Shown piece by piece: positions 24,106 through 52,530 of a DNA stretch of 64,000 bases. The translations under genes and the position numbers were made by a program. The notes beneath the pieces were generated by a model. The model was not told the DNA's origin. It was given only the letters and a program-made list of their open reading frames with translations, and made no database searches. Position 1 is the stretch's first letter. Every line of letters starts with the position of its first letter. Source of the stretch: a virus (lineage: Duplodnaviria > Caudoviricetes); the IMG/VR virus record IMGVR_UViG_3300026522_000002, positions 1 to 64,000 of that record. One strand, given 5' to 3'.

Positions 24106-26300
24106 CTAAAATAATTCGAGTTGCTGATATGACAAATCTGCTATAATCTTATTCGCTTCCGAAATATAGTAATTATAGTTAATGTGTCTTTCAGTTATAG
24201 GTAAGTCGTCCATTTTATTTAGTATTGTGACACCTGACTTCGTGAGCATATTTTCCTCTTTCCCGTCTTTGTCTACCTTATAAAGTGAATAACCATTAGT
24301 GCTGGCATAATATCGATTTATACGTTGTACAAACCGATCGCCGTGTCGGACTTTAAATTTCTTATCAGTTCTTTGACTCATTAAGAAATCATGTATATCT
24401 GTCTGTTGTCTTATAAATTCAGACACAGGTTGTTTCGTTAAGAAATAGTTTATCACAGCTTTTGGAATTACTGTCGGTGCTAACCCTTTTCCCAAAACAG
24501 GTTCTGTTCTAAACATTCCTCGTTTTTCTATCAGTTCTGGATCATGTGATTGTTCATATCCATCAACGACCCCAAAATAATCGTTGACTGCGTACTGATA
24601 AAACGCCTCATAGTTGTCGCTTTCAAAAGTAAGTTGTGTTATTTGCTCTACTTCAGACACTGTTTCCTGAATCTCATCTTTAGCGGTTTTCTTAGCAATA
24701 AACATTACACCATCTGTATTGATTTGCACAATCTCGCAATTCAATTCCAGCAAACGGTCCACTAACATAAGAAGTATCAATTGTCCATTAATACGTATCC
24801 TGAAAACGTTAAATGGATCGTACATCCAACTTTCTTCTTGTTGCATTTTTCCCGTGACAGAATTTAAAGTTAATTTAAGGGCTTTATCTTTAATTTTCTG
24901 TCCGCTATGTTTTGCTTCTATGCGCTCATTGTATATTTGCTCATAGACTTTCAAAAAACTTTCACCTAAGTGTCTGGGAGTAAGTTTATGCTTAATAAGC
25001 AAACTCGGATACATTGCCACGTTGTGATACACTAAGATGCGTAATTGTGTATCCAGATCTTTCAATCCTTGTCGACTATATCATAACTTAATATCATAAT
25101 AAGTTCAAATTATTTCGAATATGCGCATCAATCATATCCTACTCTCTTTCGAGATAGTCTGTGAACGTTCTTCCGATTGGAAGCTTCGCTGCGGATTGCC
25201 CAATCTTTACTGCTTTTACAATATGACAGGTCATTACCCTATCTGCTGCCATTTACATTTCTGCAATGCGCTGTGAGTAAAGCTCTAAGGGGGTTCCCGC
25301 AATTAAATTTGTTTTACTGGCGCCAAATCTTCAACGCCACATCACTGTGTCCGATATACTCGTCAGGTCCTGGTCGGAATATCTTTGGTTTATTCAGCGA
25401 ATGAATACCTCCTACACCAATAGAATACACCGTATTCGAGAGAACGAACTTCTTCTCGTAGCCTTTGCGTTCTTTTGAGTAGACTATTTGCCCTTTCATC
25501 TCCTCAAGAACGGCTTGTAATTCTGGGTTTTTATATTTGATGAATGGAAATATAACATCCTTTAGAGGAATGTAATCCATCGGAGAACGCATCTCTTTGA
25601 GTTCATTCATTGAGATTCCTGTCGCTTCACAATATTTTTTAGCAAGAATTGTTTCTCCGAATTTCACACTATCCATCGAAAGTGCGTCAATTCCATATTC
25701 ATCTTGAATAAACAAACGTATTTTTATGTCTTTTTGAAGGCGATTTAATAACTCTTCTGTAGACTCTACGTCGTTTATATTGTATGCAATCATTTTATCT
25801 ATTTCGTATACTGGTAAATACGCTCCAAAATCTCCATCGTACTCTTGCACGTTTTTGTAGTGCATTGTTACCTGCATACTTTTTAGACTAACTCTTAATT
25901 TAGAGCTGAATTGCATTGTAAGCAAATCCATAGAATAAAAGTAATGTGCGTACTTCCACTTCTTGAATTTACTTATCTCTTCCATTGTTGTTGCTTTTAT
26001 AACAGCATTTGAGAGATTGTACAACGATTCACAAACTTGTTCTATTGATTTATGAATTAAGATACCGTAATGGTAAATGATGTAGTTTATGATTACATCA
26101 TCGTAGTGTTTATTGTTATAACCACAAAATATTACGTTCTTTTCCATAAAAAAGTAAACAAGACTTATTAGGTCTCGTTTACGCTCAGATAGTTCGAATT
26201 TGTATAGTTGTCCAGTCTCTGTATTCTTGCAACAACAATGAAATACATTTGGAAATACCTCAATATCGTAGGTAATTACCGGACAGTTTCGTATACACAT
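24106..26300 (-). CDS. polB: Family B DNA polymerase (exons 26300-25334 and 25016-24106)
   Basis: Exonuclease YDIE and GYNNKHYD; spliced motif A DVASMYPS; KLTLNSVTG; NTDG. Confidence 0.94.
25017..25333 (-). mobile_element. Compact ORF-less group I intron (317 nt) in PolB motif A
   Basis: P1 TGGCGT/GCGCCA with a U.G pair; core AATCCGCAGC, GTTCACAGACTA and ATGATATAGTCG; terminal G. GCG T|CA ATG TAT CCG restores ASMYP. Confidence 0.94.
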
Positions 26301-26730: not shown

Positions 26731-27258
26731 CTATGCTGCCTTCTTATAAGCCTCTTTCGATTCCTTATTTTTGGACTCTAATATACTATAAATAAGAGGG
26801 CGAGTATATTTCTTGACGTACTTTTGACTCAAGAACTGCACTATTTTATCGTGTTGTGCTTCACGCTCTGCTACCCATTTAGGATATTCTTCCTTGTAGA
26901 AGATGTCGTTCTCCAATGGTTTTGGATTTTTCTTCTCCCATTTGGATAGTTTGTCTTTGAGGTAAGCTTCGATATACTCTTCATGAGTCGTCTTTGCTTG
27001 CTTACGATTGTTTTCAATAGCGATACTTTCCTTCTTCGTAAGGTAATACCAAGGCTTCTGCTTATTAAGCTTTTTGCCTTTTCCTACTCGATCCTTAATC
27101 GTGGTAGCACTTATGGCTGGACGGAAGTCACGATATTCGTCTATACCATCATATTCGCCAGGATCGTTTGCTTTTATTGTAGGAGGAATACAGCACTTCT
27201 GATTTCTAATGCTGTAGAGCTTCTTCTGAAGCTTCTTATTTATTGTTTTCTTGCCCAT
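26731..27258 (-). CDS. Basic hypothetical protein ending in -AA
   Basis: 175-aa ORF preceded by the CATAATCAAT-ATG leader. Confidence 0.75.
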   Translation of the reverse strand: MGKKTINKKLQKKLYSIRNQKCCIPPTIKANDPGEYDGIDEYRDFRPAISATTIKDRVGKGKKLNKQKPWYYLTKKESIAIENNRKQAKTTHEEYIEAYLKDKLSKWEKKNPKPLENDIFYKEEYPKWVAEREAQHDKIVQFLSQKYVKKYTRPLIYSILESKNKESKEAYKKAA

Positions 27259-27550
27259 ATTGATTATGAATTAAATCTGACAATTGGGAATCAGTTAAAA
27301 ATACATTGGATATTACAGCCCCGTTAGAAAATGTTATAACACAAGGCTTAGAGTTTGTCTCTATCATATAGTTTTCAACTAATTCATACCATGCCTCTTT
27401 TTTGTCTTCTTTCGTAAAAGCAGCAGTTCTAATTGTTATAATTTCCTTCTTATCGAAGAAAAAATCTACCATAAGCGTATATGGATCTTCTTGTGGTTTT
27501 CCAATTACTTTCTTAGGAACTATTGTTTTTAAAATTACCGCCGTTTCCAT
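27236..27550 (-). CDS. Hypothetical protein
   Basis: Coupled ORF. Confidence 0.65.
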   Translation of the reverse strand: METAVILKTIVPKKVIGKPQEDPYTLMVDFFFDKKEIITIRTAAFTKEDKKEAWYELVENYMIETNSKPCVITFSNGAVISNVFLTDSQLSDLIHNQYGQENNK

Positions 27551-28083: not shown

Positions 28084-28127
28084 ATTGATTATGATGTTAA
28101 ATTGTTAATATTGTGGGAAAATATTAG

Positions 28128-28198
28128 TAGTCTATACAGGACTCGAACCTGTTTCACCGGCTTACTTAGCCGGTGCTTTACCAATAAGCTAATAGACC
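28128..28198 (-). tRNA. Atypical tRNA (nominal AGT/Thr anticodon, A33 in place of U33)
   Basis: Full cloverleaf; anticodon arm CCGGC-TAAGTAA-GCCGG. Confidence 0.7.
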
Positions 28199-28398
28199 TA
28201 CGTTGTTGCACTATACGTATTCGTACAACAACGCAATGAAACCCCTTTTATAATCCGCAACGGCAAGGTCCTTATTTGTGTGCCGTTCACTGCGCGCGAC
28301 CTTAATCTTAGGATTATTACTTAGTTTTTCACACCTTGTAGTTTGTGACGAACCGACCGTCATAGAAAGTCCTTGCATACTTCAAACTATATCGAACA

Positions 28399-29775: not shown

Positions 29776-30417
29776 TTAGTCAGTTACAATGATAACTTCC
29801 TTGCTTGCAGGAGCAGCCTTACCTGGGAGATTTACTACCACGGGCGTGGGAGTGTCTTCAGGGTTAGTACCCTTAGTCAACTGATCGTAATACTCCTTGG
29901 ACTTCTTGTTGTTCTCGTTAATAGCCGAGTCAACCTGAGCGATTGCCTTGTTGATCTCCTCGCGGAGCTTCACAAGACGCTCTTTCTCATCATAGTTGAG
30001 AACGTTTACCTTCTCAACGAGTTTCTTAGCGTCAGCGAAGATGATGTTCTTGTCGCCAGTAAGAGCCTTGCCGAGAGCATCCTCAGTTACGTTAGAGAAT
30101 GTCTTACCATCAGAACTGATAGATACAGACACTTCGTCTTCAGTATCCTTATTCAGGATCACCTGAGCGTCACCGAGAGCGCCATTAGCCAGTTGTACAC
30201 TGAGAATGTCGTGACCTACTACGCGGAAACGACGAGGGGTACGGTTGAGGATTAAGTCCACATTACCGTTACGTTCAACTTCTACTTTTCGCTTTTCGAA
30301 GTCGAGAATCGCAGCCCGTGCTTCGGGCTTAAAGAACTGGGTACCAAGAGTACCACCAATGATACGAAGATCAGGGCGGCATGACTCAGCCACCTTGCTT
30401 AAATCTACTTTTTCCAT
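29776..30417 (-). CDS. Hypothetical protein (likely highly expressed)
   Basis: 213-aa ORF with biased codon usage. Confidence 0.8.
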   Translation of the reverse strand: MEKVDLSKVAESCRPDLRIIGGTLGTQFFKPEARAAILDFEKRKVEVERNGNVDLILNRTPRRFRVVGHDILSVQLANGALGDAQVILNKDTEDEVSVSISSDGKTFSNVTEDALGKALTGDKNIIFADAKKLVEKVNVLNYDEKERLVKLREEINKAIAQVDSAINENNKKSKEYYDQLTKGTNPEDTPTPVVVNLPGKAAPASKEVIIVTD

Positions 30418-30469
30418 TTACTTATCCTATTTGATATCGTGGTTGATTCCACCAACGATAAGTTAAACA

Positions 30470-32340
30470 TGTTTGAATTCCGTATTCTGCATACGGGTTT
30501 TTATTTTTGTTGTTCAATACTTATTTTACGTTACGATTGCTGTTCTAATGTTTAGCACGCTTTCGTCATAGGCTAGTTATACCCCAAGGGATATAACGGG
30601 GATCCAACGGTAGGATCATCCAGGCCCGTAATCTATGGCGTTTTTTAAAGCTTTGAATGTCGTATGTGTATAATCAAATACTAAGTTTTTGAACATGATT
30701 TTTAGAAGTATAAAAATTATGTGATTTTACCCACTAAGCGCTCTACTTATCAGGAAATAAGGGAGGGTTCACTAGCTGAGGTAATTCCACATTGTAGATA
30801 AAAAGATTTGTTTTGGTTGATATATCTTCGATATTTTCCCGTTTTTGCAAAGACGTATCTTCCTGATTTACAGTTTACTCTGGTGCCGTAAGTTTATTGC
30901 GCTGGCTTACGGGCCTCGTTTCCTACTTTTGTGCTTTTGGGTGCTTGCGTGAGGAGTACGCTTCATTATCGGACGATCTCGGGACTCCAGAATCCTTCAC
31001 AGACCTTACGGCTTTTTAAGACTTTGCTGTCCCTTTGTTTATAGTGCACGAACACTGGGGAGTTCAACCCATACACATAGTTTCTTGTCACCCACTTACC
31101 TTGCTTGTCACACACCTCGAGACAGGAGGTAGTGATCTACCTGCATACGCTTCGAGCACTGCGTCTAATGGCTACAGTAAGCTGCCCATCGATTTTTGTG
31201 TATTCGGCTCTATGCTTTCCACCCACATGAGTTGCTGCTCAATGCTTCGTTTCGTTTCGCATTCTGCCTAAATTATTTCACAGTTACGGTTGGCACTCGA
31301 CTTTCTCCGATCAGTTCCACTACTTACAACGTAGGTTTTCCTAGGAGGGAACAGTCAATTTTGTTAAACATGTTATCATCATTCTTTGTTGTATTTTGTT
31401 TTCATTCAAAATCTAATACGGATATACGCATACGACAACAGTCTTTTTTTCATATCTTCATCACAAAAAGAGGTATAAATATGCGGCACCATTTCGAAGG
31501 TACTTGCTAATACAAACACGTAAGTATAATGCGCTTTCTCAACTGGGTGTGAGAGTCTGAATATACTCGCGTATAGATTTGAGTTTTTGGCTATCACGTA
31601 ACCACCGAGGGGTGTAAGGTTTTTATCCTTACTACCGAACATACACTTGTTACGCCTAAATAACTTATGTATGGAGAATCAGCCATATGTACGCGGGCTC
31701 GTTCCGCTGAGGCGGGGCCTTCCACCTCCTAATCATTTACTTTTATATAACCGCTTGAACGATCAAAGCCTGGCGGTCTATACTCCATATTAAATCAGCC
31801 GTATTACCCTCTTACTCCCCTCGTGTTAGACGCCGAGAGGCACTGGATTTGCACCAGTTTGGACTTACCTAGGCTACGTAGTTACGGTACGCATTCAGTT
31901 AGAACTAATCTGAATCTCCATTAATACTTCTGTATAACTTTTTCGCTCCTTCATAATGAGTTTGGACCTCATGAACACTAAGCTCGGCTAAATGACATAT
32001 CATACTTATTGTGGATGCTGTGCCTTGGTATGTGCGATTACCTTCATCGCTTCCCTGGTCTCGGCTAAGTATGTGGCAACTCGTGTTTCGTTATACTGTG
32101 TTTATATGTCATTACACAGCATGTCCGATACGGTACACTGTTTTGCTCCTTTTGAGTCTTATGCGTCTTCTCTTGAATACATCACCAGACGGTTCTCATG
32201 CATCAGAATAGGGTTTTAGTACTACGCTCTCCCTAATACAAAGGAGTTTTTCACGCTCCAATGTCTTCCATCCTACCTTTTGAGCTCTATTTTCAAGCTT
32301 TATCGCCATCAGAGATGGTTTACATATTCTCGGATCAAGT
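30470..32340 (-). ncRNA. ~1.9-kb ORF-free structured region, candidate giant ncRNA(s)
   Basis: No credible ORF in either code. Many hairpins plus long-range pairs such as CTGTTCCCT/AGGGACAG. Confidence 0.5.
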
Positions 32341-32342
32341 AG

Positions 32343-32478
32343 ATTGTTACTTACCATATCTCCCGTATTAAAAATCTCAGCTATTCTCACGAACCACTGA
32401 GACGAGCTTAATAATAACATTCAAACTAAACAAGTATGCCTTGTGGGAGAGCGGGGAGTCGAACCCCGCAGTAACAAT
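32343..32478 (-). ncRNA. Circularly permuted tRNA-like element
   Basis: ATTGTTACT-G-CGGGG-TTCGACT-CCCCG-CTCTCCC-A comes before its partner GGGAGA-TATGGTA-AGTAACAAT. Confidence 0.68.
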
Positions 32479-32504
32479 AGTTGTATCAGGGCTAATGAGA
32501 CCCT

Positions 32505-32897
32505 TTATAGCGATACTGAATCTGTAATTGTTTCAGGCATAATTATTGTAGGCTTGGATATACGTATGGTGTCTACATCTATCGGAGCCTTACGTTCAAC
32601 TGTGTCTGGAACAAATACTTTCTTCGTTCTCCACTTAGTTTTATACACTGTCTTTGTGGAGCCAACACAGCATATTTCAAGAGGGATTGTATCGCGAACT
32701 GTATCGCGAACAACCGTTAGACCGACATTGTTCGTATGACCTAACAAAAGGTCTTTCGGATACTGCATAATTACCGGTGACGGCATTGTTGCAGCGACTG
32801 CTGTTTTGTTATATAACGCGGCATGTTTTGTTGCAGCGATGGTGAATCCACCAATGGCGAAACAAATACAGCAGATGATAGTTGTAATTTTCTTCAT
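32505..32897 (-). CDS. Secreted/membrane hypothetical protein
   Basis: Signal-peptide-like N-terminus; VRDTVRDT repeats. Confidence 0.7.
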   Translation of the reverse strand: MKKITTIICCICFAIGGFTIAATKHAALYNKTAVAATMPSPVIMQYPKDLLLGHTNNVGLTVVRDTVRDTIPLEICCVGSTKTVYKTKWRTKKVFVPDTVERKAPIDVDTIRISKPTIIMPETITDSVSL

Positions 32898-32971
32898 ATT
32901 GATTATGTTATTCTGTTAGAAGAGTCTTTTTACGCGACAGCAAAAAGCAACTATCCGATCCTTGAGTGTCG

Positions 32972-34375
32972 CTACTCTTTTTTTCCTTCTTCCCCTTCCT
33001 TTGCAACAAGAACCATCTCTGTGAGGTTTGCTTCGTTGTATTCTAGGTTTGGAGTAGTAGGATCACGGAACAGATTCACGATGATACCTGCACGCTGCTG
33101 AACGTTGTGCTTCACGGTAGCTATATCGTTCTTCTCAAGGTCTACGTCGCTATAATACGTTTCGAACACTTTCTGGAAAACGAGTCGTGCTGCACGATTG
33201 TTGCTAGACTTAGCATCAGCATAGTCTATGATGAGAGAATCTACAGTGTCTGTAGATGCGTTGGTAAGCATGTCGATGATATCTTTGCAATGAGCGATAG
33301 AGTTCTTGCAAGATTCAATCTTACCTTCAACATCCTTGATACCTTCTGCGTTCTTCTTAGCGTCCTTCTTCAGAATGGCAAGATTCTTCTCATGCTCAGC
33401 GATGCGGGCATTGTAGTTCTCAATAGAGAGCTCGTTTACCCAAGTGACAATAGCGCGAGTGTAATCAGCCACTTCGCTATCACTAAGTTCGCATTCGCCC
33501 GTCTTGCGGTCCGTAGCGGAACTCTTGAGCATGCAGAACGCAACAATAGGACTCTTAGTAGAGCCTGTGAAGGTCCCCATGGATCTCCCAATACCTGACA
33601 GTACAATGGGACAGTCGTGAATCACATTCTTGATCTCATCGAGGAGTTCAAGATTGCTCTTCTTATTCAGTGCGGCAAGCTCTTCTTCTTTCTTGTCGCT
33701 CTTGTTTGCTTTTGCGCTGAGGTAGGAACGATAGAACTGAATAGCGTTCTTGATCTTTTCCCAACCATTCTTTGCGTCAGCCATGATGAAGTTGATGGCG
33801 TCTTTGAGTTCAGCGTCACTTTCGATCTTTGTAGGGTCGATGTTTGGCTTCTTCTCAAGGATTTCATGCTCCTTCTTAAGCTGCTCTTTTGCCTCTTTTG
33901 AAGGCTTGATAGCTATAGATGGAACCTGAATCGTACCATCTTCGCTTGGTGCAGGGAGTGCCTTCTGGTCGATTGTGATTCCCATATCATGCGCAGCATC
34001 GATGATTGTAGGAAGCATGCTCTGACGAATTGCTCCAGCAAATGCCGATGTTCCAAACATGCCTTCTTGTGCTGCAACGACAACCCAACCGTGAGCGGTA
34101 AATACGTTGACCTTGTCTACAGTTTCCTGTGAAATGCCAAGCTTATCAGCTGCATTAGGCTGCATGAAATGACGATCGAGACCGTTCAACAGATCTACCT
34201 GATGATTTGCATCAAGGCCTGGTCTCGGATTGTTGAGCTGATCTACAAGACCGTCTGCGTCAATTACGTTGACTTTTTTCTTGTTGTTGATTACTTCAGG
34301 CTCAACAACTTTTTCCTCGGCTTTCACCTCTGGAGCTGGGGGTACCTTTGACCCCTTTTTGTTATTCTTTCCCAT
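32972..34375 (-). CDS. Hypothetical protein (467 aa)
   Basis: Long ORF with biased codon usage. Confidence 0.85.
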   Translation of the reverse strand: MGKNNKKGSKVPPAPEVKAEEKVVEPEVINNKKKVNVIDADGLVDQLNNPRPGLDANHQVDLLNGLDRHFMQPNAADKLGISQETVDKVNVFTAHGWVVVAAQEGMFGTSAFAGAIRQSMLPTIIDAAHDMGITIDQKALPAPSEDGTIQVPSIAIKPSKEAKEQLKKEHEILEKKPNIDPTKIESDAELKDAINFIMADAKNGWEKIKNAIQFYRSYLSAKANKSDKKEEELAALNKKSNLELLDEIKNVIHDCPIVLSGIGRSMGTFTGSTKSPIVAFCMLKSSATDRKTGECELSDSEVADYTRAIVTWVNELSIENYNARIAEHEKNLAILKKDAKKNAEGIKDVEGKIESCKNSIAHCKDIIDMLTNASTDTVDSLIIDYADAKSSNNRAARLVFQKVFETYYSDVDLEKNDIATVKHNVQQRAGIIVNLFRDPTTPNLEYNEANLTEMVLVAKEGEEGKKE

Positions 34376-34522: not shown

Positions 34523-34885
34523 CTATATTCTAGGGTGATATTCTGGTGGATCTGTTAGAGTCTCTTTATAAGACTCTTTTGGAAGGTTACTTACCTCACT
34601 TGAGCCAGGTGTGGTATCCTGACTCGCAGGGTTTGGCACAAGGCTCTGGGTTGTGGGCGGCACGTCTGCCAAGAAACTGTACGCGTTTGGCGTGCAGCTC
34701 ACCACCTGCGTGGGGCACACCTGAGTGAGGGTTTCGTCCTTCTGATCCACCTTAGTAATTATTGACTCTGCAGCAATACCTACTGTAAAGGAAGTAAATG
34801 CTGCCCAGAAGAGCTTGTGGCTCTTATTGATGCGTGCAATAGCAATTGCGAGCACCAAGCCGATAATTAACCAAAGTAAAATCAT
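34523..34885 (-). CDS. Two-TM membrane protein coupled to the sigma factor gene
   Basis: Two hydrophobic helices; 4-nt overlap with the sigma ORF. Confidence 0.7.
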   Translation of the reverse strand: MILLWLIIGLVLAIAIARINKSHKLFWAAFTSFTVGIAAESIITKVDQKDETLTQVCPTQVVSCTPNAYSFLADVPPTTQSLVPNPASQDTTPGSSEVSNLPKESYKETLTDPPEYHPRI

Positions 34886-35445
34886 AGTTGTTGTTTTAAT
34901 TTGTTTTGTAATCTTTGCCTCGAACGTCTTAAATGCGACTTTACGGTATTTTCAGACATTTTCAGCGTTTTACCAATATCTTTCGATGTCATATTGTCTA
35001 AATAAAACAATCTACATACTGTTCGTGCTTGCTCGGAGAGTGCGTTAAATTCTTCAAGCAATTGTTCATATGTTAACCGATTGACTAGATCAGTTTCATT
35101 TGAACTTGCTGGTACGTTAGAAACTAGTCGGGAATCTAATGTATCAGACACTATTGGTACATGTTTTGTTCTACGTAGATAATCTATCGCAGTGTTATTG
35201 GTTATGATTCGCAGCCAGCCCCCGAAGGAGTCATATGCTGTGAACTTTTCAAGTTTGTCGTACACTTTCAGAAACACAATGTTTGCAATATCGTTGGCTT
35301 CATCTTTATCTTTGATGTAACCGTACAATATTTTACTTACAAATGATTTGTATTTCTTATATATACGATTGAAAGCAATAATATTGCCTTCTTGTGCAGC
35401 TTTGATAACCTTAATTTCTTCTGGAGTAATTTTTGGGGTTTTCAT
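34882..35445 (-). CDS. ECF-type sigma-70 factor
   Basis: Region 2 (EANDIANIVFLKV...FGGWLRIITNNTAIDYLRR) and region 4 HTH (SKDIGKTLKMSENTVKSHLRRSR). Confidence 0.92.
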   Translation of the reverse strand: MKTPKITPEEIKVIKAAQEGNIIAFNRIYKKYKSFVSKILYGYIKDKDEANDIANIVFLKVYDKLEKFTAYDSFGGWLRIITNNTAIDYLRRTKHVPIVSDTLDSRLVSNVPASSNETDLVNRLTYEQLLEEFNALSEQARTVCRLFYLDNMTSKDIGKTLKMSENTVKSHLRRSRQRLQNKLKQQL

Positions 35446-36696: not shown

Positions 36697-36756
36697 GCGG
36701 AGATCGAGGATTCGAACCTCTACACTCCTTGTTAATAATAACGTTAATAATCTCCG
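36697..36756 (-). ncRNA. Minimal tRNA-like element downstream of the tmRNA coding piece
   Basis: Acceptor CGGAGAT/ATCTCCG; T-arm GAGG-TTCGAAT-CCTC; short AT-rich interior. Confidence 0.62.
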
Positions 36757-36759
36757 TCC

Positions 36760-37030
36760 TCACTTTCGTAGTTAGCACGTGACCACATCAGGCTGCCAGC
36801 TTGGTGTAGTCAGCAATATAAGAATTGCCAGTTATATAGTAATATCCCTTAATGTATTTCCTTCCACATACGATCAAAACCTGTCAGGCCCGATTGTAAC
36901 CTTTTTCGCTCATGTCGCCGCCAAACTTAGCATTTACCGAATATCGCTATGGTTACATAAAAAGTCGCGTCGGGTGGACCTGGGGGTAGTCGAAACCCCG
37001 TCTCGCATGCGTATCTCATACAGGATAAAA
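36760..37030 (-). ncRNA. ssrA: Circularly permuted (two-piece) tmRNA
   Basis: Acceptor piece ...CGCATGCGA-GAC-GGGGT-TTCGACT-ACCCC-CAGGTCC-A (ends 36975) comes before the coding piece GGGCCTG-ACAGGTTTTGA-TCGTATGTG (starts 36891). G3.U70 present. Tag ORF 36829-36788 follows ATAACT: GNSYIADYTKLAA-TGA. Outer ends are approximate. Confidence 0.92.
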
Positions 37031-37526
37031 CTTCGATAGAAACATAATTGATCAGATTATGCTCTAAACAGCTCATAAATGGCTCTCTAAGCCACGATCT
37101 CCTTTAGGGTAGTTAGCTACTCCATCCTATTGGAAAAAGTGTCTCAGAGAGCGGTTTTGAAAAGCTATTATTCTTGTTGATACAGAGGCCACAGGCAGAC
37201 TTAAAGTTCGGCAATGGTATGCATCCGCATTTTTTGATAAGAATATGAGTACTTCGTACGCAAGGCTAACTTGATGACTAATACTGGCTCCAGGCTCACA
37301 TATTCTGGTTAATTGATCAAAATGGACCTATAGTTTTACATCCGTAGGTTCAGATGCTATATACCCCTATTACTGGCTTAAAGCTCTCAATAGATGTCGT
37401 TATTTCGACTATAGTTTCCGCTCATACATCTTACACGTCCGACTCAAACGGCCCCCGATGTAACTATTGCAGTAAGGATTACTGGTTCAAGACTCTCAAT
37501 CCTCGGTATAGTTTCCTTACGCTAAA

Positions 37527-51006: not shown

Positions 51007-51081
51007 TGCTCCATGGTGTAGCGGTAGCACGGGAGGCTCTAACCCTCCAGGTCCGGGTTCGACTCGATGGTGGGGCGACCA
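51007..51081 (+). tRNA. Amber suppressor tRNA (anticodon CTA), Gln-like body
   Basis: Anticodon arm GGAGG-CTCTAAC-CCTCC; acceptor TGCTCCA/TGGGGCG; encoded CCA; irregular T-stem. Confidence 0.9.
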
Positions 51082-51103: not shown

Positions 51104-52530
51104 ATGGAATTGAAGATTAAAAGACTAACTGAGGATGCAATCCTCCCAATTCGCGCCCATAAAGGAGACGCTGGAATTGATTTAACTTGTACAACAATTA
51201 CTCAGGAAATTAACGAGTGTGGTCAGTTGATTATAGTATATCATACTGGCTTAGCAATTGAAATTCCTGAAGGTCATGTTGGGTTGTTGTTCCCTCGCTC
51301 AAGCATTGCAAACAAGTCATTGTCGCTTACGAATAGTGTAGGTGTAATAGACGCTAAACTCTGCATCGTTTTTTAACCTATCGATGCAACCAGTTCTATT
51401 ATATTTTGCGTTATCTTTATATAACCAAAAAAGATATCGATATGCTTATAACAAAAACATGTTTAATGTGTGGAAAAGAGTTTCAAGTTCCACATTGGAG
51501 AAAAGATAGCGCAAAATATTGTTCCGTAGAATGTAGACAATCTGCATTACATGGAGAACTTAATTGTACGTGTGAAGTTTGTGGAAAAAGATTTCACATA
51601 AAAGAATCTCAATTAAACCGATATAAACATCATACATGCTCAAAGAAGTGTATGAATGAGTTAAAAAGAACATTATATTCTGGAATTGGAAATCATCAAT
51701 ATGGTTTAAAAGGAGATTTAAATGCTTCGTTTAAAGGAAAAGAATTAACAAAGATCAACAACGATTTAGTAGATATTTACGTTTACTGTCCAGACCATCC
51801 GTATGCAAATAAAAACGGAAGAGTCGTTAAACACAGATTAATCGTAGAACAGCATTATGAATTGTTTGATTTTAAATACTTCGAAAAAGTAAAAGGGCGT
51901 GTAGTATTAAAAAAGACTACTCAAATTCATCATATAAACGAAGATCACAACGACAATAGAATAGAAAATTTAATACCCGTTACAAGGTCTGAACACAAAA
52001 TAATACATAATCTTTTTAAAGATATTGTGAGGGATCCGAAAAACGGAAGAATAACTGGCGTCATTAAACAGGGTGAATTGCTGGAAAAGCCGGAAGCGGC
52101 CAATCAGCAGCCAAGCTTAGATGGTAACATCTCTGAAGGTTCAGAGACTAGCAGTCGAGTCCTTATTGAGGACGGTAATACTGCCAAGAGTGCCCTGCCC
52201 AGTAATACTGGTGAAGATATAGTCCGACCTGCAGATATAACAAACGAAACTGCAGAATTGCAGGATAAAGAGCCTGTAAGTTAACATATGGGTTATCGCG
52301 GTGAGGTTATGGCTAAGATGCGCTCCACTACAGATGTGGTTCCTGCAATCTACAAACCAGGCGAGCGATTCGCACAACTTGTTATCGTTCCAATTCCAGA
52401 AGTAGAGATAACTGAAGTAGCCGAACTTAGCGAAACAGATCGTGGTGAAGGCGGCTTTGGTTCAACAGAAAATACTACAGAAGCTCCCGCAGAGATGGAC
52501 TCTGTAGAGCCAGCTGTGGCAGCTGAGTAA
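51104..52530 (+). CDS. dut: Trimeric dUTPase (exons 51104-51355 and 52291-52530)
   Basis: DAGIDL, PRSS, spliced GVIDA|[11 protein letters not shown] and RGEGGFGST motifs. Confidence 0.95.
51356..52290 (+). mobile_element. Group I intron in dUTPase motif III
   Basis: Exon GACGCT pairs with IGS GGCGTC (52057-52062); P10 ATAACT/GGTTAT; core AATCAGCAGCCAAG, GTTCAGAGACTA and AAGATATAGTCC; terminal G. Confidence 0.95.
51442..52284 (+). CDS. Intron-encoded HNH homing endonuclease with N-terminal Zn-finger repeats
   Basis: CxxCGKxF...YCSxxC repeats; HRLI...[16 protein letters not shown]...EH...H. Confidence 0.9.
   Translation: MLITKTCLMCGKEFQVPHWRKDSAKYCSVECRQSALHGELNCTCEVCGKRFHIKESQLNRYKHHTCSKKCMNELKRTLYSGIGNHQYGLKGDLNASFKGKELTKINNDLVDIYVYCPDHPYANKNGRVVKHRLIVEQHYELFDFKYFEKVKGRVVLKKTTQIHHINEDHNDNRIENLIPVTRSEHKIIHNLFKDIVRDPKNGRITGVIKQGELLEKPEAANQQPSLDGNISEGSETSSRVLIEDGNTAKSALPSNTGEDIVRPADITNETAELQDKEPVS

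Follow-up and report, generated by a model that had tools for sequence, protein, structure and literature searches.

The 64,000-nt stretch analysed here (hereafter, the window) comprises the first 64 kb of IMG/VR record IMGVR_UViG_3300026522_000002, a complete virus genome of 100,574 bp with direct terminal repeats, which is that of a complete crAss-like gut phage. Between the stop codon of the open reading frame (ORF) 32505-32897 and the ATG of ORF 29776-30417, both on the minus strand, lies a gap of 2087 nt (30418-32504), and this gap is very probably the gene, or a tightly linked set of genes, for a very large structured non-coding RNA encoded on the minus strand. The gap is conserved and syntenic among related phages, its helices co-vary, a coding signal is absent and its G.U pairs are strand-specific; transcription, RNA ends, processing and function of the RNA we infer. 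The gap is best described as a conserved, strand-specific, multi-domain structured RNA locus of ~2 kb and represents a new family similar in kind to the giant ornate RNAs of phages, in this case with an unusual permuted transfer RNA (tRNA)-like head. A preliminary description of the window had placed such an RNA at 30470-32340; this interval is indeed structured, but the structure reaches beyond it, upstream to 32516 (hairpin H0, see Table 1) and downstream to ~30422.

Conservation and coding potential

Searching phage records with BLASTN, we found patchy identity of 68-84% to unannotated DNA of Suoliviridae crAss-like phages. An unannotated syntenic gap of 2.0-2.2 kb is present in cr272_1, cr273_1, cr124_1, cr7_1, cr130_1, Bohxovirus and Dulem virus 42, and the same arrangement is seen in cr4_1 and cr53_1 (Loutivirinae), the named Suoliviridae with the gap spanning two subfamilies; the shared gene order runs from a sigma-factor-like gene over a protein of ~470-500 aa and one or two small proteins to the gap, which is followed by two proteins of ~200 aa. 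Relatives were gathered with an invariant 14-mer and then with a three-block pattern, yielding at least 109 IMG/VR and at least 119 metagenome stretches. The three-block 5' motif occurs in at least 163 loci, most of them on contigs of 95-105 kb from human, pig, macaque, bovine and other gut samples, and these loci collapse at 92% identity to ~40 lineages. A more distant group (class 2), with gaps of 2.0-2.5 kb and the same synteny, keeps the 5' domain strongly and the rest weakly, in the same order. Every related phage sampled has the syntenic gap of ~2 kb and the helices co-vary from end to end above controls, which bears out the large structured RNA proposed in the preliminary description; the giant RNA family is a constant component of crAss-like phages of the Suoliviridae. 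One copy of the locus is present in the complete 100,574-bp genome.

A ~93% identical phage, detected in pig and other gut runs, is without the ORF 27236-27550 and the tRNA-Thr region (27262-27549, 28126-28338), and the 71-nt hairpin region 31801-31871 of the giant RNA is replaced in it by 7 nt; because of this replacement, we regard that stem-loop as dispensable. Six public runs labelled as RNA contain the stretch; in the four examined, the whole phage is covered, with contigs up to 20 kb, which marks them as virome or DNA-containing libraries.

That the region is free of ORFs, as had been noted before, was confirmed under three genetic codes: under code 11 no ORF in the gap exceeds 104 aa, and reading TGA as Trp or TAG as Gln gave nothing notable. 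The longest stop-free run (109 codons) is at the random level (shuffle mean 105), variable sites among close relatives are distributed over the codon phases as 123/123/138, without a 3-nt periodicity, and no ORF of at least 25 codons at one place is kept beyond ~120 alignment columns, so that small conserved ORFs do not explain the region either. A close relative from public runs differs from the window in the gap by indels of 1, 3, 4, 12 and 71 nt. Taken together, the absence of ORFs in the three codes, the random-level stop-free runs, the lack of a codon phase signal and of a conserved ORF and the indel sizes lead us to consider the gap as non-coding. Two statements of the preliminary description hold only in part. 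The purine richness of the minus strand exists as a modest excess (A 0.34 + G 0.22), and the gap, real as it is, has a competitor for the largest non-coding stretch in 45690-47666, which is also long and gene-poor (ORFs of 52-71 aa).

The window contains two group I introns and a suppressor tRNA, which might suggest that the gap is a self-splicing intron, another mobile ribozyme, or a decayed or recoded protein gene. We hold this to be extremely unlikely: no intron model matched the region at E up to 10 in the very search that detected both group I introns in other parts of the window, the element occupies one fixed site in all lineages instead of turning up sporadically, and there are no exons to join, since the flanking ORFs end with a stop and begin with ATG, respectively. 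As to a recoded gene, the frame stays closed under TAG or TGA reassignment, and codon periodicity is absent.

Secondary structure and covariation

A plain MAFFT alignment of the relatives displays invariant single-stranded blocks between stems whose two sides change together. Helices were sought in 36 relatives as runs of at least four column pairs in which standard pairs make up 88% or more (another scan was run on 19). RNAalifold on plain MAFFT alignments recovers in-register helices only. The scan of 36 relatives yielded 148 helices, 20 of them with at least three co-varying pairs; 21 non-overlapping helices from 32335 to 30439 have 95.8% of their cells paired, compared with 32-47% when the partner columns are slid by 1-3 positions. 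Slid partner columns served as the control, as a null based on column permutation was dropped for being too lenient, conserved columns being clustered. The alignments A3 and A5 were made without fitting to any structure, A4 being model-fitted. The features of the locus are compiled in Table 1.

Table 1. Predicted features of the giant RNA locus; positions are those of the window, paired strands are separated by a slash
Feature	Position	Strand	Elements	Basis
H0, anticodon-arm-like hairpin	32483..32516	-	Outer stem GUAUC/GAUAC 32516-12/32487-83, then 5' bulge; inner stem AGGGU/GCCCU 32504-00/32492-88; 7-nt loop CUCAUUA 32499-93	Recovered by minimum free energy fold
3' half of permuted tRNA-like element	32441..32469	-	T-stem GCGGGG/CCCCGC with loop UUCGACU, 32469-51; acceptor 3' strand UCUCCC 32450-45; discriminator A 32444, then CAA in place of CCA	Sequence reading and fold
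Spacer	32359..32440	-	8-bp hairpin GUCUCAG.../...CUGAGAU, then acceptor 5' strand GGGAGA 32364-59	
Start of conserved core	32340	-	ACTTGATCC, also as ACUUGAUCC	
5' domain	32160..32340	-	P1 32335-32/32273-70; P2 32318-15/32309-06; P3 ~32254-32232; P4 32235-31/32213-09; pseudoknot P5, P4 loop GCGU 32227-24 with ACGC 32166-63; P6 32203-198/32182-77, capped by invariant loop UGAGAACCGUCUGGNGA	Covariation on alignment A3
Central domains	31480..32159	-	Hairpin 32120-14/32101-095, its loop GACAU 32110-06 pairing with AUGUC 31998-94; hairpins 31983-80/31948-45, 31893-88/31880-75, 31857-54/31846-43, 31708-05/31695-92, 31699-96/31684-81, 31604-01/31591-88, 31552-49/31543-40; conserved block near 31780, GACCGCCAGGCUUUG..GCGG.AUAUAAAAGU	Helix scans, 3-7 co-varying pairs per helix
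A/U-rich linker, poorly structured	31355..31479	-	Conserved AACAUGUUUAAC inside	Alignment A1
3'-half core	31036..31354	-	Closing helix AGUGC/GCACU 31297-93/31047-43, spanning ~250 nt; helices 31334-31/31323-20, 31245-38/31231-25, GCUUA/UAAGU 31182-78/31098-94, 31129-26/31118-15 with outer extension; GGG/CCC hairpin near 31068-54; invariant motifs GUGGGUGACAAG and UUCGUGCAC	Covariation on alignment A5
Less conserved 3' region	30479..31035	-	Co-varying hairpins 30681-78/30671-68 (loop UUGAUU), 30616-13/30605-02, 30597-92/30581-76; terminal hairpin 30495-30479	Helix scans
Hairpin UUAUCGUUGGUGGAAUCAACCACGAUAUCAAAUAGGAUAA	30422..30461	-	Directly 5' of ATG (30417) of the 213-aa gene; helices 30461-57/30426-22 and 30452-49/30442-39	
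Loop sequence of the giant RNA family			UGAGAACCGUCUGG	

For the 5' domain, on A3 (32 sequences, class 2 included), 85.1% of the cells are paired as against 67.5% in shuffles, the covariation score is 0.457 as against 0.170 in shuffled (0/500) and 0.08-0.16 in slid controls, and both sides change in 29 of the 33 pairs, the pseudoknot P5 being among the supported elements. A covariance model of this domain (R1) found exactly one full-length match in each of 74 loci (97-192 bits) and two further matches cut at a locus end, and it matches the window once; on the model-fitted A4 the score rises to 0.645, compared with 0.186. The loop contact of the first central hairpin (GACAU with AUGUC, Table 1) also co-varies and represents a second tertiary-type contact. 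In the 3' half, A5 (17 sequences) has 92.9% of cells paired versus 79.6% shuffled and a covariation score of 0.398 versus 0.167 shuffled (0/500) and 0.05-0.13 slid, with both sides changing in 20 of 31 pairs. Compensatory changes thus exceed shuffled and slid controls on A3 and A5 alike, and we interpret the core as at least three co-varying domains with two pseudoknot-type contacts.

Single elements named in the preliminary description fared differently. The two hairpins with T-loop-like motifs, at ~31857-31843 (CTGG/CCAG) and ~31068-31054 (GGG/CCC), are kept in relatives, the first with stem swaps, but the long-range pairing of CTGTTCC (31354-31348) with GGGACAG (31033-27) is not kept in the 36 relatives, where most cells are unpaired. 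We also rejected helices spanning ~1.9 kb (32306/30458 and 32272/30458), which conflict with each other as well as with P1 and P2, and an RNase P-like combination of motifs, GUAAGUCC with CAGGCUUU, which finds neither covariation in the alignment nor an Rfam match.

The hairpin just before the downstream gene deserves separate attention. Its motif, AUCGUUGGU..AAUCAA..ACGAUAUCAAAAAGGAU, is kept in nearly all class-1 relatives, the UUAUCGUUGGUGGAAUCAACCACGAUAUCAAAUAGGAUAA hairpin motif occurs once in the window where 0.01 would be expected by chance, and both of its helices co-vary. It is probably a separate cis-regulatory element of the downstream gene and a candidate translational operator.

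The 5' module

Upstream of the core, the hairpin H0, which overlaps the stop codon (32507-05) of the upstream ORF, precedes the core in all lineages. Among 57 distinct sequence contexts its loop reads C[U/C]CAUUA in 52, and in 52 the loop-closing pair is U.G; family-wide, the hairpin consists of a 4-6-bp outer stem, a 5' bulge and a 5-bp inner stem, the inner pairs 2-4 of which co-vary over 23 stem variants. The anticodon loop of tRNA-Met is CUCAUAA, and H0 therefore resembles the anticodon arm of a tRNA-Met whose position 37 is U. The core begins 0-75 nt after H0 in most lineages.

In the window the space between H0 and the core is taken up by the permuted tRNA-like element that had been described before, and the pairing on which it is based, GGGAGA with UCUCCC beside the T-arm, was found as described, the core beginning 19 nt after GGGAGA. 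The 171-nt leader of the window folds into a permuted tRNA-like shape with z = -3.4. Only in the window and in the lineages L004 and L227 is H0 followed by a T-arm and an acceptor 3' strand with discriminator A and then CAA or CUA; in all three, a complementary acceptor 5' strand follows 40-170 nt further on, just before the core, and the acceptor stems differ by compensating changes (UCUCCC/GGGAGA, AACUCCC/GGGAGUU and ACCCCC/GGGGGU). The spacer of L004 holds a genuine tRNA-Met(CAT) gene on the same strand. The permuted element may be viewed as a lineage-specific handle for tRNA-type processing, placed on a family-wide anticodon-arm mimic.

In many relatives (for example, L213, L182, L100, L002 and L056), H0 is preceded at a distance of ~20-90 nt by a long hairpin of 12-16 bp that co-varies and frequently carries AGCUUUGCGCU at its apex. 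The window, in which the corresponding space is coding, has no such hairpin. These structures may serve to terminate the upstream gene, or they may belong to the RNA.

Strand, ends and unity of the predicted RNA

Conserved G.U pairs are informative about the strand, because the other strand would have A.C in their place. One such pair, at A5 columns 164-308, is G.U without exception, at columns 93-114 and 246-283 the wobble (G.U or U.G) is more frequent than any other combination, and U.G closes the loop of H0 in 52 of 57 contexts. In 38 of 41 homologues, the fold of the sense (minus) strand is furthermore the more stable one, with a mean difference of 30 kcal/mol to the antisense strand, and the T-arm parts as well as the nested tRNA-Met of L004 share this strand. 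The conserved G.U pairs, the gene orientation and the same-strand tRNA-like parts are the reasons for assigning the RNA to the minus strand. Its start is predicted at or just before H0 (32516) and its end probably lies at the hairpin near 30479, which would give a core of ~1.86 kb and ~2.04 kb with the leader. One RNA of ~1.9-2.0 kb appears to be the simplest reading, two or three co-transcribed RNAs being possible.

Not all observations favour a giant RNA of this kind, and those that weigh against it are considered here together with the explanations they might support. Helix counting does not separate the strands (148 helices with G.U allowed, 132 with A.C allowed), which is the reason why conserved G.U pairs were used for this purpose. 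This lack of discrimination would suit an element acting at the level of DNA, for instance an origin of replication or a site of packaging or recombination, with hairpins formed in single-stranded DNA, and so would the long non-coding stretch with its A/T-rich parts and many inverted repeats. The conserved G.U wobbles, however, would correspond to A.C mismatches in the opposite strand or the duplex, the pseudoknot and the loop-loop contact co-vary, the alignment is devoid of iterons and tandem repeats, and the tRNA-like parts stand in sense orientation, so that we consider a DNA element very unlikely.

Another point is that no helix with solid covariation links the 5' and 3' halves across the linker 31480-31355. 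The locus might thus be a string of smaller independent RNAs or domains, e.g. a 5' RNA of ~0.86 kb and a 3' RNA of ~0.88 kb split at this linker, which itself is poorly structured; the ~1.9-kb spans that could have bridged the halves are the mutually conflicting ones mentioned above, and in class 2 the 5' domain is much better preserved than the other parts. Against such a split it must be held that the region contains neither a conserved internal promoter motif nor, on the sense strand, a terminator-like site, and that in every lineage all parts occur together, in the same order and with a similar total length. We regard separate RNAs as a possibility to be reckoned with, albeit a doubtful one.

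Also to be set against the giant RNA is the result that no conserved Bacteroides-type promoter (TAnnTTTG) was found upstream of H0 or inside the region. Further, in many relatives the alignment places a hairpin ~40-60 nt ahead of the next gene and, after it, a run rich in U on the sense strand, but the window keeps its hairpin 30495-30479 without a U-tract after it; because of this missing run, its 3' end near 30479 is an inferred one. An element without a recognised promoter of its own, lying on the same strand as both neighbours, overlapping with H0 the upstream stop codon and carrying a conserved hairpin right at the downstream start, could be seen as a giant leader or trailer of the neighbouring mRNAs, serving the cis-regulation of the downstream 213-aa gene or the stabilisation of the upstream operon transcript. 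Such a role seems unlikely to us, as 2 kb with invariant loops, pseudoknots and a closed 250-nt domain far exceed any known leader, the tRNA-type processing signals of three lineages would sever the RNA from the upstream mRNA, and the terminator-like hairpin with its U-run precedes the downstream gene in many relatives.

The tRNA-like head, finally, raises doubts of its own. T-arm and acceptor are present in just 3 of the ~127 loci examined and therefore cannot be essential to the function of the family, and the acceptor contains G3-C70 instead of G3.U70, with CAA or CUA replacing CCA.

Comparison with known RNAs

The preliminary description could not assign the RNA to a family, and neither could we: with Rfam 15 the gap gave no match at the gathering score in a scan of the window, nor at E up to 10 in 30000-33000 apart from noise, and there was no family match in the relatives L004 and L227. 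A published description of the element was not found in the literature searched for crAss-like phages with non-coding or structured RNA, and non-coding or intergenic regions go unmentioned in the main genomic survey of these phages.

GOLLD is about 0.8 kb and ROOL about 0.6 kb in size, compared with the ~1.9-2.0 kb predicted here. Like them, the RNA of the window would be a very large, multi-domain phage non-coding RNA with covariation support, situated beside or interleaved with tRNA genes; the shared surroundings (tRNAs at 28127 and 35508, the tRNA-like parts at 32441-32516 and the tRNA-Met of L004) amount to a resemblance in context only. GOLLD (RF01998) and ROOL (RF03087) are large ornate RNAs of phages and prophages, the structures of which are available (bioRxiv 10.1101/2024.12.08.627333). 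Unlike these, the window RNA belongs to crAss-like gut phages, a different host clade, and their models found no match at any threshold, be it in the window, in 30000-33000 at E up to 10, or in L004 and L227. The giant RNA is not a member of GOLLD or ROOL and is comparable to them in kind only.

The closest biological precedent is the crAss-like Cellulophaga phage phi14:2, in which two long intergenic regions (g004-g006) are transcribed above most genes, from the earliest time point onwards and persistently (Drobysheva et al., bioRxiv 10.1101/2020.03.07.982082). In its genome (our L237) a ~1.7-kb gene-free stretch of the early region, 2905-4601, corresponds to the long non-coding RNAs for which high transcription was reported; all annotations of small ORFs in it were withdrawn in 2020, and the record carries no Rfam family. 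Both phages thus have a long gene-free stretch in a Crassvirales genome, but phi14:2 belongs to another family, the Steigviridae, and searching its g004-g006 region gave a best nhmmer E-value of 4.1, no invariant motifs and, in L237, no match of model R1.

The two-piece transfer-messenger RNA (tmRNA; RF04321) resembles the permuted element in the succession of T-arm and acceptor 3' strand, spacer, acceptor 5' strand and long structured RNA, and processing by RNase P and at the 3' end would give a two-piece molecule here, too. The tmRNA_permuted model, however, scores the element at 32441-32469 with 13.8 bits (gathering score 47, E = 7.2) over model positions 36-93 only, and ARAGORN called neither a tmRNA nor a tag frame there. 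Further differences are the G3-C70 pair and the missing CCA, the anticodon-like arm H0, which has no equivalent in tmRNA, and the absence of the T-arm and acceptor part in most family members.

Possible function and significance

Regarding function, we can offer a tentative mechanism, which as a whole we would rather doubt than trust. The giant RNA would accumulate as a stable folded particle during infection and act on the tRNA or translation machinery of the host, its 5' module mimicking the anticodon arm of tRNA-Met. In the window phage, L004 and L227, the permuted T-arm and acceptor stem would serve to attract RNase P and the enzymes that process tRNA 3' ends; excision of the spacer by these would give the giant RNA a 5' end in two pieces, similar to that of tmRNA. 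A more specific version, distinctly improbable, is that of a single ~2-kb RNA, the largest structured phage RNA outside rRNA-sized molecules, with a 5' end mimicking tRNA-Met by the CUCAUUA loop and the discriminator A and tied to the ribosome, methionyl-tRNA synthetase (MetRS) or anticodon-targeting defences, the permuted acceptor/T-arm of some lineages being processed, and perhaps charged, like a two-piece tmRNA. If true, it would define a new class of translation-directed phage RNA.

Whatever its function, Suoliviridae rank among the most abundant gut phages of humans and animals, and each lineage sampled devotes 2% of its genome to the element. Should it be one RNA, it would exceed GOLLD, to our knowledge the largest ornate phage RNA, more than twofold in size and extend the short list of giant non-ribosomal structured RNAs. 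The ~40 diverged lineages can be used for structure modelling, and the invariant loops resemble binding or catalytic sites. A natural experiment is provided by the permuted tRNA-like 5' module, which three lineages carry, one of them together with a nested tRNA-Met; through it, the connection of giant phage RNAs with tRNA biology can be tested directly. The family may also help to explain the abundant non-coding RNAs of phi14:2, the sole crAss-like phage with mapped transcription.

Genomic neighbourhood

The neighbouring genes all lie on the minus strand, in a leftward block of mostly unannotated genes. Searches of their proteins against Pfam and PHROGs yielded one match, the sigma-factor-like gene at 34882-35445, and a search of the ESM Atlas gave no usable match. 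For the conserved 467-aa upstream protein, an AlphaFold model (predicted local distance difference test, pLDDT, 79.5) found no PDB match at E<=0.001, only generic helical repeats.

In the second ~2-kb stretch, 45690-47666, no ORF exceeds 71 aa and several of 52-71 aa lie mostly on the minus strand; blastn detected no similarity to any phage record and Rfam no match, and the stretch is either occupied by small genes or another non-coding element.

Other RNA genes are frequent in the window, which carries tRNAs, including those at 28127 and 35508. A permuted (two-piece) tmRNA gene (36697-37065, minus strand; 51.4 bits against a gathering score of 47), for which ARAGORN gives the tag peptide GNSYIADYTKLAA, shares the strand of the giant RNA and lies 4 kb upstream of it. 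The two group I introns, both above the gathering score, lie at 25053-25342 (minus strand) and 52003-52244 (plus strand), the former between the ORFs 25314-26300 and 24106-25065, probably the two exons of a single gene. The suppressor tRNA at 51007-51081 (plus strand) has the anticodon CUA (amber; labelled Pyl by ARAGORN), and the tRNA at 42574-42647 (minus strand) has an oversized anticodon loop (tctg). These two tRNAs suggest stop-codon or frameshift suppression in part of the phage genes; the ORFs beside the giant RNA are intact under code 11.

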